NCBI RefSeq assembly: GCF_053078305.1
Contig: NZ_CP166879.1
Strand: one strand, 5' to 3'
DNA: 64,000 nt
The translations under genes and the position numbers were made by a program. Positions 19,371 to 36,721 of this stretch are shown here, piece after piece. The notes below the pieces were generated by a model that searched no databases, was not told the DNA's origin, and worked only from the letters and a program-made list of their open reading frames with translations. How positions within the stretch are numbered: position 1 is the first letter of the stretch; every line of letters begins with the position of its first letter.

Positions 19371-21449
19371 TTAAAGAATCCTTATGTAATTAAGTGGAGG
19401 TGTTATTTCATCATTCAATACATACCAAGAATGCTCAAATGCTGGCCAACGCACTAAATCGAAGCCATCTGCTGCTGGGTTTATTCGCCGTGTAACTTCT
19501 CTGGCATCTGACAAACTACATCCTTTATCCGCCCAATAATTAACGCCTAAACTACCACTAGGTGTCAATCGATGGCTTACCATTATGTATTTTTGCTTAC
19601 TTGCCCAAAAGTATCCCCCGGCATCGCAAGAAAAATAGGCATTTTCAACTGGGAGTTGGTTATTGGGTTCTGTAGTAAAAAAATCATCATCTGACGGATT
19701 TCTATACTTTCCATAATTTCTATAATTCTCACGACCAGTTAGATGTATGGTACCTCTGCCTTTAAATCTTGCACCATCACCAACAACATTATTTCCAAGC
19801 TTAAGTCCCTGTTCTGTTCCTGGCTCATACATATCAAAATAACTCGAATCACCATTCTCTATAAAAGACGCAAATCTGCCTGTTTCTCTCGCCATCTGAC
19901 CGAAATAATGCGCAATCCGCAATGGGGTTGTAATTAAGTACTTCCTTAGTGACTTTGACAGTTCATTTTTCAACCCTGCAGGTCTTATCACCTCACCACT
20001 GCTATTTTGTCCTTGGCTAGTAATCCGCTCAATTAGAGTGTCTTTACTTAATGGTCTTGTAAGTTCTGATGTCATGGGATAAGCATTTTGATAACGTCTT
20101 ACCACACTTATAATATCATTTTCTCCTAACCACCCACATTTCCTGAAATGTGCAATAAACTGCCTGGGATCAAAATGCCATACACGCCTGGCAGGTAACG
20201 GATTATCTACCAAACAAAGCGCCTTACAGTGTTCTATCAGCAAATCCAGGTCAGGCTCTGTCATCGGCTTACTCAATACGTCATTGGGTGATTTCAGCCA
20301 CTCAAACCGTGATTCCACGGTGGCGCTGTCCCATTCTAGCGGAAAATGACAAATCATCCGACTTAGGTCATTGCGGGTTGTACACAGGATTGTTGGTGAA
20401 TTGCACTGGCTGTTGGTGTCCGCATCATCGTTCACCAGTTTCCACCCTGTCCAGTGTGGAAAATCACCGTCGCTGTAAACCCTGATATCTCTCGCCCCTA
20501 AGTTAACAACGCCTTTACCCTGTGGCGTATTGATTGTTCGCCACAGCGGCGCATCCGCCGGGACTAATTCTTCATATTCTGTATTAACAACCCGACCAAA
20601 ACGCAGCATCTCATAACCGGCACTTGGGCTTTTCGGATAGAGTTGCAGCGCGTAGGAATAGAGATTGTATTCATAATCCTTACCATCAGCATTAATCAAG
20701 GGAGAACCTACTTCAGTATAGGTATCACTCAGCACTTCATGCTGCTGACGCGTCACCATCGTACAATTGCCTTTATCAAAACTCATTGTGACATACAATG
20801 GCACGCTGGTTCTTTGTACCGGACTGTTGTTCGCAAGCGAGTTTTCTTCCGGCATGTCCCCATAAATCGGTGTTCCGGCAGGGAGATAAAAATGACTATC
20901 ACCGTAAACCACATCAGTTCGTCCATCTTTATTCAGGTCTGTTTCCGGTGATATTCTTCCTGTGATTTTCTGAATGTTTTCATCATCACAAAAAATCTGA
21001 AAATGAAAGGCGTTCTGTCCGTCCACCATCCCTGCTGCACCAACCGGTTCTTTCCGGTATAGCGTGTTTCCCGGCTGCACATTACTGTCAATGCTTCTCA
21101 GGTGCATATATAATGAGTAATAGACGATTTTACCCTCTTCTCCACTACCGATTTCTGTTTCATGTTTTATCAGAACATAGCCTTTATCCGTAACTCCGTT
21201 ATAATTTAACGGAGGAACTGTATTTTCCGCTGGTTCTGGCTGGCGTATTGAAATAACCTTCCCATCGGCAATACACCTAACAGTCTCTGACAGATTGCCG
21301 TTCAAATGAACTCCACCATGCCAAGAACGACCGCTATTCATTGGGAAATTTCTTTCTGGATCAACAGACATCATTCTGTTTACCCAGTCAGAGTCTTTTT
21401 CAGTGTCTATATGCGCATGCAATATTGGAGGGCTGATTATCATTATCAA
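19371..21449 (-). CDS. Putative T6SS cargo effector, 692 aa: N-terminal LytM/M23-like domain and C-terminal GH19/lysozyme-like domain (peptidoglycan hydrolase candidate)
   Basis: N-terminal motifs WHGGVHL ... GYVLIKHE ... YYSLYMHL resemble degenerate M23 motifs; C-terminal FKGRGTIHLTGRENYRNYGKY and GGYFWAS resemble GH19 signatures; immediately downstream of vgrG. Confidence 0.6.
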   Translation of the reverse strand: MIMIISPPILHAHIDTEKDSDWVNRMMSVDPERNFPMNSGRSWHGGVHLNGNLSETVRCIADGKVISIRQPEPAENTVPPLNYNGVTDKGYVLIKHETEIGSGEEGKIVYYSLYMHLRSIDSNVQPGNTLYRKEPVGAAGMVDGQNAFHFQIFCDDENIQKITGRISPETDLNKDGRTDVVYGDSHFYLPAGTPIYGDMPEENSLANNSPVQRTSVPLYVTMSFDKGNCTMVTRQQHEVLSDTYTEVGSPLINADGKDYEYNLYSYALQLYPKSPSAGYEMLRFGRVVNTEYEELVPADAPLWRTINTPQGKGVVNLGARDIRVYSDGDFPHWTGWKLVNDDADTNSQCNSPTILCTTRNDLSRMICHFPLEWDSATVESRFEWLKSPNDVLSKPMTEPDLDLLIEHCKALCLVDNPLPARRVWHFDPRQFIAHFRKCGWLGENDIISVVRRYQNAYPMTSELTRPLSKDTLIERITSQGQNSSGEVIRPAGLKNELSKSLRKYLITTPLRIAHYFGQMARETGRFASFIENGDSSYFDMYEPGTEQGLKLGNNVVGDGARFKGRGTIHLTGRENYRNYGKYRNPSDDDFFTTEPNNQLPVENAYFSCDAGGYFWASKQKYIMVSHRLTPSGSLGVNYWADKGCSLSDAREVTRRINPAADGFDLVRWPAFEHSWYVLNDEITPPLNYIRIL

Positions 21450-21590
21450 TAGTCCTTATTAAGCTTATAAAACATGTAACGAGTATGAATTATTCATTCA
21501 CAGAGCATCTCTGCTTAGAAAGCAGAAAATCACAGTATTATTGTATTATTACTACCGTCATCCGTTATCTTTATCTGAATGATTATCCCA

Positions 21591-31437: not shown

Positions 31438-31703
31438 ATGCCCCTCACAATCTTTTAAAGATTAAGTGTAGGACAGTACACAGGTTAACCAGCAAAAGGA
31501 TTTGTCATTTTTTCGTCAGTTGTATTAATCCCCTTCAGGATTGTAAGGGGATGTTTTGCATCGTTTATCGATAACGGGTAGGATGCTGCGCCGATAGTTT
31601 TATACCCATAAAGAATAATGGTGATAACTATCATCGCCAGGATGAATAAACATTGTTCATGGCAACTTATATGACTTTTTCATTAAAGCAATCAGGGAGA
31701 GCA

Positions 31704-33315: not shown

Positions 33316-34377
33316 TTACAGCGCAATACGAATCACATCGTCTGGCTGGGTAGCTTCCTGCTGTTTAGTGGATTTTTGTTTCACACTGACATACAGCGTT
33401 TTGCCATCGGCAGACAGCGCCAGGCTGTTCGGATGAGTCGGCGTATCGAACGTTTTCACCACTTTATAGCTTTTCGCGTCAATCACACTGACTTTACCTG
33501 CCTGACGATGCGTTACGTAGGCTTCATTACGCGCTGGGTTAAACAGCACAGCCAGTGATTCCGGTGCCGCAACCTTCGCCAGAATATTGCCATTACGGGT
33601 ATCGACCACTAACACTTCTGCGGCTTTAGAATCGGTGATAAATGCACGCTGCCTGGCGGTATCAAGGCTAATGTTGATAAAGAAGTGCTCTTTGCCGTCA
33701 TCCAGCAGCTTTTTACGGCTGAGGATTTTATTGTCGGCGGTGTCGATGGTAATCAATTCGCCGTCAGCGTTAGTGGTGTAAAGACGTTTGCCTTTGCTAT
33801 CCAGCGCCAGACCGGTACTCATTTTACCGGTGTTCTGGATGGCGGTTTTCAGTTTGATATTCTCGCCATCAACGACCCAAATCACGCTCTCTTTACCAAT
33901 ACCACTGATGTAAACGGTGTTCGTGGCATCATCAGCTACCAGCTCACGCGGTTGCAGCGGGCGCACCTCTTCCGTGCGCTTACGATCATCCAGCACCAGA
34001 CGGCCTTTCACTTCGCCCGTTTTGGCATCTATCGCCGTGACCGCGCTGTTTACGGTGTTACCAAACCACAACGTCTGAGTCGTGTTATTGATGGTGGCAC
34101 CAAACGGCTTGAGATCGTTATGGATCGCCTGCGTCACTTCCAGAGTGACCGGATCAAGACGATAAACCACGCCACCTTTATCCAGTTTGCGGCTTTGCGA
34201 AGTGGCGAGCCACAGCGCGTTTTCTTGCTGGCTATAAGCCATTTCGTAGGCACCTTTACCTACCGCTTTACGCAGCATTTCTTCTGCGGCCTGCGTACTG
34301 AATGATGAAGCAACAAGCAATGAACCTAACAGTAATGAACCACGCAGGCGCGATGAAAACAGATGACGTAAATGCAT
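33316..34377 (-). CDS. yncE: Periplasmic beta-propeller protein YncE
   Basis: 353 aa with signal peptide MHLRHLFSSRLRGSLLLGSLLVASSFSTQA. Confidence 0.9.
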   Translation of the reverse strand: MHLRHLFSSRLRGSLLLGSLLVASSFSTQAAEEMLRKAVGKGAYEMAYSQQENALWLATSQSRKLDKGGVVYRLDPVTLEVTQAIHNDLKPFGATINNTTQTLWFGNTVNSAVTAIDAKTGEVKGRLVLDDRKRTEEVRPLQPRELVADDATNTVYISGIGKESVIWVVDGENIKLKTAIQNTGKMSTGLALDSKGKRLYTTNADGELITIDTADNKILSRKKLLDDGKEHFFINISLDTARQRAFITDSKAAEVLVVDTRNGNILAKVAAPESLAVLFNPARNEAYVTHRQAGKVSVIDAKSYKVVKTFDTPTHPNSLALSADGKTLYVSVKQKSTKQQEATQPDDVIRIAL

Positions 34378-34459
34378 GACGACTCCCTTTGATGAACCGA
34401 TATTTTTGCTGCTTCACAATGCTTCGCTAAGCGTAATCATCGTTACGCTCTTGTTATAA

Positions 34460-34485
34460 ATGGGAATGGTAATCATTATTTTCTC
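34460..34485. promoter_or_regulatory. Candidate Fur box in the divergent yncE–yncD promoter region
   Basis: tggtaatcattatt matches 12 of 14 positions of the Fur consensus core (tgataatcattatc); lies between an iron-regulated beta-propeller gene and a TonB-dependent receptor gene. Confidence 0.45.
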
Positions 34486-34618
34486 AAATGTGGAGCATTT
34501 CTTGCCGTTACGACTACAATTTTCTCAATTACTTAACGTATTGTGCCGTTTCATTTTCCATAAATTTACAATTTCATTACCATGACGGCGTTTTCCCATT
34601 CTTAACCTGGCTTTTTTC

Positions 34619-36721
34619 ATGAAGATTTTTTCCGTCCGACAGACCGTTTTGCCCGCCCTGCTTGTCCTTTCCCCCGTTGTTTTTGCCGCTGATGAACAGA
34701 CCATGATTGTCAGTGCCGCGCCGCAGGTGGTTTCAGAACTGGATACCCCTGCAGCAGTAAGCGTGGTGGATGGCGAGGAGATGCGCCTGGCAACACCGCG
34801 CATTAACTTGTCCGAATCACTGACCGGCGTGCCTGGTTTGCAGGTACAAAACCGGCAGAACTATGCGCAAGATTTACAGCTGTCGATTCGCGGATTTGGC
34901 TCCCGTTCCACTTACGGAATTCGCGGTATTCGCCTGTATGTGGACGGTATTCCCGCCACCATGCCCGACGGGCAAGGGCAAACATCCAACATCGATTTAA
35001 GCAGTGTGCAAAATGTGGAAGTGCTGCGTGGCCCCTTCTCTGCCCTGTATGGCAACGCGTCTGGCGGTGTAATGAATGTCACCACCCAGACCGGACAACA
35101 GCCACCAACCATTGAAGCCAGTAGTTACTACGGCAGTTTTGGCAGCTGGCGCTATGGGCTGAAAGCAACGGGCGCAACGGGAGACGGCACACAGCCCGGC
35201 GATGTTGATTACACCGTCTCAACCACGCGTTTTACGACCCACGGCTATCGTGACCATAGTGGCGCACAGAAAAATTTAGCCAATGCCAAACTGGGCGTAC
35301 GCATTGATGAAGCCAGCAAATTAAGCCTGATTTTCAATAGTGTGGATATCAAAGCAGATGACCCGGGTGGGCTAACCAAAGCAGAATGGAAGGCGAATCC
35401 ACAACAAGCGCCTCGTGCAGAACAGTACGACACGCGAAAAACCATCAAGCAAACTCAGGCTGGGTTGCGCTATGAACGTAGCCTGAGTTCGCGGGATGAT
35501 ATGAGTGTGATGATGTATGCCGGAGAGCGAGAAACGACCCAGTACCAGTCAATACCCATGGCGCCACAACTTAACCCGTCACATGCGGGCGGCGTGATTA
35601 CCCTGCAACGCCATTACCAGGGAATAGACAGCCGCTGGACACACCGTGGTGAACTGGGCGTTCCGGTCACGTTCACTACCGGCCTGAACTACGAAAACAT
35701 GAGTGAAAACCGCAAGGGCTACAATAACTTCCGCCTGAATAGCGGCATGCCGGAGTACGGGCAAAAAGGTGAGTTGCGTCGCGACGAACGCAATCTGATG
35801 TGGAACATCGATCCCTATTTACAGACGCAGTGGCAGCTGAGCGAAAAACTGTCGCTGGATGCTGGCGTGCGCTACAGCTCCGTGTGGTTTGATTCCAACG
35901 ACCATTACGTTACTCCGGGTAACGGCGATGACAGCGGTGATGCCAGTTATCACAAATGGCTACCAGCCGGATCGTTAAAATATGCAATGACCGATGCCTG
36001 GAATATCTATCTGGCAGCCGGGCGTGGTTTTGAAACGCCGACGATTAATGAGCTGTCTTATCGCGCTGATGGGCAAAGCGGTATGAACTTTGGTTTAAAA
36101 CCATCCACCAACGATACAATTGAGATCGGCAGTAAAACGCGTATTGGTGATGGGCTGCTTAGTCTCGCATTGTTCCAGACCGACACCGATGATGAAATTG
36201 TTGTCGATAGCAGTAGCGGTGGGCGTACGACTTACAAAAATGCTGGAAAGACCCGTCGTCAAGGCGCTGAACTGGCATGGGATCAACGTTTCGCGGGAGA
36301 TTTTCGCGTAAACGCGTCCTGGACCTGGCTTGATGCGACCTATCGCAGCAATGTTTGCAATGAACAGGATTGTAACGGTAATCGGATGCCAGGGATCGCC
36401 CGTAATATGGGCTTTGCGTCGATAGGTTATGTACCGGAAGATGGCTGGTATGCAGGCACGGAAGCGCGTTATATGGGCGATATTATGGCAGATGATGAAA
36501 ATACGGCCAAGGCGCCGTCTTATACTCTCATCGGCTTATTCACCGGGTATAAATACAATTACCACAATTTAACTGTGGATTTATTTGGTCGTGTCGATAA
36601 TTTATTCGATAAAGAATACGTTGGTTCTGTCATTGTCAATGAGTCAAACGGGCGATATTACGAACCTGCGCCCGGACGAAATTATGGTGTCGGCGTGAAT
36701 ATCGCATGGCGATTTGAGTAA
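34619..36721 (+). CDS. yncD: TonB-dependent outer-membrane receptor YncD
   Basis: 700 aa, signal peptide, TonB-box-like N-terminus, C-terminal aromatic residue (…NIAWRFE). Confidence 0.9.
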   Translation: MKIFSVRQTVLPALLVLSPVVFAADEQTMIVSAAPQVVSELDTPAAVSVVDGEEMRLATPRINLSESLTGVPGLQVQNRQNYAQDLQLSIRGFGSRSTYGIRGIRLYVDGIPATMPDGQGQTSNIDLSSVQNVEVLRGPFSALYGNASGGVMNVTTQTGQQPPTIEASSYYGSFGSWRYGLKATGATGDGTQPGDVDYTVSTTRFTTHGYRDHSGAQKNLANAKLGVRIDEASKLSLIFNSVDIKADDPGGLTKAEWKANPQQAPRAEQYDTRKTIKQTQAGLRYERSLSSRDDMSVMMYAGERETTQYQSIPMAPQLNPSHAGGVITLQRHYQGIDSRWTHRGELGVPVTFTTGLNYENMSENRKGYNNFRLNSGMPEYGQKGELRRDERNLMWNIDPYLQTQWQLSEKLSLDAGVRYSSVWFDSNDHYVTPGNGDDSGDASYHKWLPAGSLKYAMTDAWNIYLAAGRGFETPTINELSYRADGQSGMNFGLKPSTNDTIEIGSKTRIGDGLLSLALFQTDTDDEIVVDSSSGGRTTYKNAGKTRRQGAELAWDQRFAGDFRVNASWTWLDATYRSNVCNEQDCNGNRMPGIARNMGFASIGYVPEDGWYAGTEARYMGDIMADDENTAKAPSYTLIGLFTGYKYNYHNLTVDLFGRVDNLFDKEYVGSVIVNESNGRYYEPAPGRNYGVGVNIAWRFE

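Follow-up and report, generated by a model that had tools for sequence, protein, structure and literature searches.

The sequence at 34462-34480 of the analysed window (the whole stretch of DNA under study, 64 kb in length) is almost certainly the Fur operator of the yncE promoter and not a dedicated operator of the divergent gene yncD/pqqU. The match to the Fur consensus, the conservation of the site and its anchoring to yncE emerge from the sequences compared here, and the in vivo occupancy by Fur under iron-replete conditions and the Fur-dependent expression are documented in the literature. A Fur box upstream of yncE is already known, and the identification is in itself of little consequence, as yncE is an established core member of the Fur regulon and a vaccine-antigen candidate. 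What is added here are the exact coordinates of the box, its calibration against classical operators and a 78-species footprint that ties the box to yncE, together with the result that this box does not reliably control the neighbouring PQQ importer. The coordinates could serve as a curation note for RegulonDB, in which the yncE Fur box is not annotated according to the Reg-Seq supplement.

Locus and neighbouring genes

The window is Escherichia coli DNA. Several complete genomes match the segment 33300-36800 with 100% identity, and 5413 of 5426 E. coli genomes contain the region. The 241-bp intergenic region that carries the box (34378-34618) is base-for-base that of MG1655, and mcbR, curA and ansP flank yncE-pqqU in the K-12 arrangement. 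An earlier reading of the sequence alone (hereafter, the sequence-only reading) had placed the box between a beta-propeller gene and a gene for a TonB-dependent receptor, which was confirmed by the Pfam domains and the RefSeq annotation:

33316-34377, minus strand: yncE coding sequence, the regulated gene; 353-aa periplasmic seven-bladed beta-propeller (Pfam PF21783 YNCE and RefSeq annotation).
34619-36721, plus strand: yncD/pqqU coding sequence, the divergent neighbour, at most weakly affected by the box; 700-aa TonB-dependent PQQ importer (Pfam Plug and barrel domains and RefSeq annotation).

The receptor gene is annotated as pqqU, formerly yncD, and YncD has been published as an importer of PQQ and not of an iron compound.

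Sequence, score and rarity of the Fur box

Two nested features describe the box:

34462-34480: 19-bp Fur box, operator of the yncE promoter, reading gggaatggtaatcattatt on the plus strand and AATAATGATTACCATTCCC on the yncE strand (score, conservation and published ChIP-exo peaks).
34467-34480, plus strand: 14-mer tggtaatcattatt, which, with position 34481 added, makes up the better one of the two 7-1-7 Fur half-site arrays that overlap here.

The 14-mer lies within the interval 34460-34485 that had been reported as Fur-box-like because of a 12-of-14 match to the Fur core TGATAATCATTATC. This count proved correct when 34467-34480 was re-checked, with G34469 and T34480 as the two mismatches. 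Matches to the 14-mer core with at most two mismatches occur four times in the window, compared to 0.46 expected from dinucleotide shuffles, and four or more were reached in 0 of 100 shuffles.

The sites were then scored with a match-count scan against the classical 19-mer GATAATGATAATCATTATC, to which 34462-34480 matches at 15 of 19 positions. A search for this consensus with at most three mismatches returned no match, because 34462-34480 carries four. At 15/19 or better, it is the sole site on both strands of the 64-kb window, where 0.18 such sites are expected (300 Markov-1 shuffles). Scaled from this shuffle count, the chance expectation for the 241-bp intergenic region is ~0.0007. For calibration, the same count was applied to the enterobactin cluster of MG1655, in preference to a Fur weight matrix, which was rejected as unreliable. 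The best sites in the intergenic regions of this cluster scored 13 (fepA-fes), 16 and 15 (fepD-entS), and 15 and 15 (fepB-entC) out of 19. The yncE box, with 15/19 compared to 13-16/19 for footprinted or classical operators, is therefore as good as bona fide operators, and its consensus match is at the level of footprinted sites.

Conservation of the box and its anchoring to yncE

The conservation of the box was examined in one genome per species with YncE, which gave 80 loci from Escherichia, Citrobacter, Salmonella, Enterobacter, Klebsiella, Raoultella, Kluyvera, Leclercia, Lelliottia, Atlantibacter and other genera. The core (A/T)TAATGATTA(C/T)(C/T)ATTC was found in essentially all of the 78 Enterobacteriaceae species recovered, and at nearly every locus 74-88 bp lay between the end of this site and the yncE start codon downstream of it. 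In the alignment of 79 distinct Enterobacteriaceae sequences, the majority base had a mean fraction of 0.95 within the box, compared to 0.67 for the remaining intergenic positions. The best-conserved 19-column stretches of this alignment start at 34460-34462, and positions 34470-34478 (TAATCATTA) are invariant, save for one sequence at 34470. As is characteristic of Fur operators, the site is thus conserved in orthologous promoters as a phylogenetic footprint. Of note, some of the invariant positions do not carry the Fur consensus base (e.g., G34464, where the consensus is T), which points to a further constraint that overlaps the box, for instance promoter elements or a marbox. Within E. coli, the 46-mer around the box is identical in 4993 of 5412 records, and the variant of O157:H7 differs by G34462A and T34483A, both outside the core.

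The distances from the box to the two genes show to which of them it belongs. In the window, the yncE start codon is 85-103 bp downstream of the box, and that of yncD is 139-157 bp away. Of the 68 species in which yncD is adjacent, 65 have the core 95-105 bp away from the start codon of yncE. The start codon of yncD lies 127-185 bp from the box, depending on the species. Likewise, the distance from the box to a TTTACA block near yncD varies among species (mostly 81-117 nt), with indels in the spacer 34497-34530 that separates the box from the conserved blocks near yncD. No second Fur-like site of at least 14/19 was found on the yncD side in 66 of these 68 species.

The box is also retained in about nine Citrobacter species that have no yncD upstream of yncE (loci L010, L011, L013, L015, L018, L020, L021, L025 and L079; upstream positions 1-1500). 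In these species, a curA-like or mcbR-like gene abuts the promoter instead, and CTCCAC..AATAATGATTACTATTC is intact. The 78-species footprint shows that the box belongs to yncE.

Published Fur binding and regulation of yncE

Published genome-wide data place Fur on this site. In W3110, Gao et al. (2023) reported a Fur ChIP-exo peak at 1524928-1524940, confined to iron-replete conditions, which maps to 34458-34470 of the window via the W3110 record. In MG1655, the peak of the same study at 1521238-1521250, present under iron-replete conditions only, maps to approximately 34461-34473, which is on the box. For this assignment, the MG1655 sheet of Dataset 2 was corrected by gene positions, as its gene and locus-tag columns are shifted by one row for P37-P47. 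The tonB row is apparently missing from that sheet, and a literal reading gives yncE the wrong peak. Fur was also found bound upstream of yncE by Beauchene et al. (2015), and Banerjee et al. (2020) detected a Fur ChIP-seq peak between yncD and yncE in CFT073, with a summit height of 845. An EMSA or footprint on this exact yncE fragment was not found in the literature searched.

A second MG1655 ChIP-exo peak (1520944-1520980, iron-replete), absent from the data of Seo et al., maps to approximately 34731-34767, within the coding sequence of yncD. This position lacks a good Fur-like sequence; the nearest site, at 34699-34717, scores 13/19.

Upon fur deletion, yncE was upregulated in eight of nine strains, with log2FC values of 3.1-8.1 (9- to 280-fold) in the published tables. 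Iron limitation increased yncE expression 16-fold, YncE protein is overproduced in a fur mutant, and yncE is a member of both Fur iModulons. The Fur box upstream of yncE was mentioned earlier by Huja et al. (2014) and in the Reg-Seq supplement; it is also mentioned by Bar et al. (2022), who cite McHugh (2003), and according to such citing papers it has been noted since 2003.

These data bear on whether the site could be a chance resemblance in AT-rich DNA, conserved because it contains core promoter elements or a MarA/SoxS/Rob marbox, and not bound by Fur. Such a reading would account for the -10-like TACCAT inside the box, the marbox annotated at -41.5 and the invariant bases that deviate from the Fur consensus. 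It is at odds with ChIP-exo peaks centred on the box under iron-replete conditions only, with the CFT073 peak between yncD and yncE, and with the large derepression of yncE in fur mutants. Moreover, the box scores as well as footprinted operators, chance would give ~0.0007 such matches in 241 bp, and Reg-Seq failed to recover the MarA site. We consider a chance resemblance extremely improbable. The sequence score, the deep conservation and the published Fur ChIP peaks together show that the Fur-box reading is right for the yncE promoter.

Candidate promoters of yncE and the probable mode of repression

The following elements were identified on the yncE strand in and next to the box:

34487-34495, minus strand: near-invariant CTCCAC(A/T)TT block just upstream of the box; candidate -35 hexamer (TCCACA) and/or part of the annotated MarA/SoxS/Rob marbox.
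34466-34471, minus strand: hexamer TACCAT, the -10 candidate of promoter model P(a), located inside the Fur box.
34453-34458, minus strand: hexamer TATAAC, the -10 candidate of promoter model P(b), for which the start would be near 34446 and the box at about -35 to -17.

The block at 34487-34495 is kept in 73-79 of the 79 sequences at every position, except for an A/T alternation at 34489. It keeps a constant distance from the box, and indels between the two are absent in 26 species. The Reg-Seq supplement quotes a MarA site at -41.5 of yncEp as a RegulonDB entry; this site was not recovered by Reg-Seq itself.

Model P(a) would combine TCCACA (34494-34489) and TACCAT (34471-34466) over a 17-nt spacer, which would put the box at about -21 to -3. 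The hexamer pair TCCAC(A/T)-17-TA(C/T)(C/T)AT is retained in 68 of 79 sequences. Model P(b) draws on the -10-like hexamer (at least 4/6) that 72 of 79 sequences carry 15-26 nt, mostly 19-22 nt, downstream of the box core; the geometry of this model agrees with the annotated MarA site centred at -41.5. A sigma-70 scan of 34300-34700 detected no canonical promoter on the yncE strand and one weak match on the plus strand (TTCACA-16-AATCAT). The same segment also yielded a terminator-like hairpin, which was rejected as the DNA image of a stem-loop in the yncE 5′ UTR (see below). A coordinate for the yncE transcription start was not found in the literature searched, and Reg-Seq covers yncEp without coordinates; we infer the exact start from the two alternative models. 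Under either of them, the box would overlap the -35 to -10 region. Because the box would lie in the RNA-polymerase contact region in both cases, repression by occlusion of the yncE promoter is most likely.

The yncE 5′ UTR and the contribution of RyhB

Two further conserved elements are located between the candidate promoters and the yncE start codon:

34430-34449, minus strand: conserved stem-loop, located at the 5′ end of yncE mRNA or close to it; 7-bp stem and 6-nt loop CGAUGA (covariation).
34409-34425, minus strand: probable RyhB pairing site GAAGCAUUGUGAAGCAG in the yncE 5′ UTR (duplex energy and conserved block).

In 26 Enterobacteriaceae species, 92% of cells were paired, and compensatory changes were found in all seven base pairs. 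The covariation score was 0.73, compared to 0.30 in shuffles, and was reached by 0 of 500 shuffles; slid controls were paired at 29-49%. An Rfam search of 34250-34750 returned only chance-level matches (E of at least 2) and no family for the stem-loop, and a description of this stem-loop was not found in the literature searched.

The RyhB-complementary block (34425-34409) is conserved and lies just downstream of the stem-loop. The predicted duplex of GAAGCAUUGUGAAGCAG with the RyhB core CAUUGCUCACAUUGCUUC had an energy of -23.1 kcal/mol, compared to -16.9 ± 3.3 kcal/mol for shuffles, of which 20 of 500 reached it. This calculation was made with the single-stranded core of RyhB only, since RNAduplex with full-length RyhB gave a meaningless end-to-end pairing. 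The presence of this block agrees with published data, in which RyhB raises yncE mRNA and translation.

The same data raise the alternative that the iron response of yncE is mainly post-transcriptional, via RyhB, and that the Fur box plays a minor role. In its favour, yncE was upregulated in CFT073 147-fold by fur deletion and 18-fold when ryhB was also deleted, RyhB raises yncE mRNA and translation, and the 5′ UTR contains the conserved complementary block. However, the 18-fold derepression left in the fur ryhB double mutant is independent of RyhB, and Bar et al. credit RyhB with only ~40% of the induction. In addition, Fur directly occupies the promoter in the published ChIP-exo data. We consider a mainly RyhB-driven response very unlikely.

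The likely course of events can be outlined as follows. When iron is sufficient, Fe2+-Fur would bind 34462-34480, probably in the form of two dimers that occupy the overlapping 7-1-7 arrays, and would block initiation of yncE transcription. When iron falls, Fur would leave the DNA and yncE would be transcribed. RyhB, which is itself repressed by Fur, would then pair with the yncE 5′ UTR and raise expression further. With Fur repressing both yncE and ryhB, and RyhB activating yncE, this arrangement would constitute a coherent feed-forward loop.

Does the box control yncD/pqqU?

The sequence-only reading had proposed iron-responsive control of both genes. For yncE, this is supported by the score, the conservation, the published ChIP peaks and the 9- to 280-fold derepression in fur mutants. 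For yncD/pqqU, the proposal is not supported as it was stated. In the fur mutant of MG1655, yncD did not change significantly (log2FC 0.12, p = 0.39). It was upregulated in the fur mutants of W3110 (log2FC 2.95, p = 2.7e-51) and 042 (log2FC 2.02), i.e., 4- to 8-fold in two of nine strains. Both Grinter and Lithgow (2020) and Hantke and Friz (2022) described yncD as not regulated by Fur or iron. In CFT073, yncD is a pseudogene, and both the Fur peak and the regulation of yncE persist.

On these grounds, a shared bidirectional operator, in which one Fur site represses both yncE and yncD/pqqU, is unlikely. The rise of yncD in W3110 and 042, the two strains in which Fur repression has the largest dynamic range, speaks for it, as does the W3110 ChIP-exo table, which assigns the peak to both transcription units; bidirectional control by Fur is, moreover, known in the enterobactin cluster. 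Against it, yncD is unchanged in MG1655 and lies outside the Fur regulon in seven of nine strains, and the two papers cited above call it non-Fur-regulated. The published tables thus do not show both genes to be Fur-responsive. The geometry points the same way, with neither a fixed distance to both promoters nor a second box: the box-yncD distance of 127-185 bp changes with indels across species, and a second site of at least 14/19 is missing on the yncD side in 66 of 68 species. Furthermore, the box stays with yncE in the yncD-less Citrobacter species, and the Fur peak stays in CFT073 despite the yncD pseudogene. Control of yncD/pqqU by the box appears weak and inconsistent and is weakly supported, and a real direct effect of the box on pqqU is rather improbable.

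The region next to yncD carries conserved sequences of its own:

34531-34584, plus strand: conserved blocks near yncD, probably the promoter or regulatory region of pqqU itself (conservation profile and alignments).

One of these blocks, TTAACG-N8-CGTTTC at 34533-34552, forms a palindrome in most species; the other, at 34565-34584, is the direct repeat TTTACA-N7-TTACCA. Between them and the Fur box lies a spacer that is poorly conserved and varies in length. Read on the opposite strand, the repeat at 34565-34584 is GTAAT-N6-GTAAA, which resembles a CpxR box. A published CpxR screen has yncD and yncE among its candidates.

A more limited influence on pqqU can be envisaged, in which the single yncE operator also dampens the divergent pqqU promoter at very high Fur occupancy. 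We regard this as doubtful. The only hint of it is the 4- to 8-fold derepression of pqqU, seen solely in W3110 and 042, where repression is deepest. Possible routes would be spreading of Fur over weak 11-12/19 sites toward pqqU, or coupling between the divergent promoters. If true, iron limitation would modestly raise PQQ import and consequently Gcd-dependent gluconate production, so that iron status would be tied to PQQ scavenging.

Comparison with known systems

The closest parallel to the box itself is found in the divergent intergenic regions of the enterobactin cluster (fepB-entC, fepD-entS and fepA-fes). There, too, 19-bp operators of the GATAATGATAATCATTATC type, matching at 13-16 of 19 positions, coincide with iron-replete Fur ChIP-exo peaks. 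The entC box ATAAATGATAATCATTATT and the yncE box have in common a 13-mer core that contains TAATCATTATT. Unlike in the yncE-yncD region, both divergent operons of the enterobactin regions are strongly derepressed in fur mutants, and these regions usually have at least two boxes or peaks. The yncE-yncD region, in contrast, has one box and one strongly regulated gene (yncE), with a neighbour that responds little or not at all.

With respect to its two layers of control, yncE is similar to cirA. In both cases, Fur acts as a repressor at the promoter and RyhB as an activator at the mRNA, which gives a coherent feed-forward loop upon iron limitation. As genes under combined Fur and/or RyhB positive control, cirA and shiA are the closest to yncE in this respect. 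According to the cited literature, activation of cirA proceeds through protection from RNase E and relief of Hfq repression. For yncE, in contrast, the stem-loop and the pairing site are computational observations.

A metalloregulator site in a divergent intergenic region is also known for znuA-znuCB, which is controlled by Zur, a member of the Fur family (Reg-Seq supplement). In that case, the intergenic region is short and one Zur operator covers both of the divergent promoters, which are both repressed. Unlike in this arrangement, the yncE box and the second gene are ~140 bp apart, the spacer between them varies, and the second gene is not consistently regulated.

Other Fur-like sites in the window

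Two overlapping Fur-like boxes, each matching at 14 of 19 positions (AGGGCTGATTATCATTATCAATAGT; 13/14 for the 14-mer core), are present at 21429-21453, at the 5′ end of a gene of the type VI secretion Vgr family. The island that bears them is variable and was found whole in only 17 of 5426 E. coli genomes. Another Fur-like sequence, AATAATGGTGATAACTATC (14/19), is located at 31614-31632 in the divergent region yncG-ansP, ~70-90 bp upstream of the annotated ansP start. Expression of ansP was lower in the fur mutant of MG1655 (log2FC -1.39, p = 4.6e-7).
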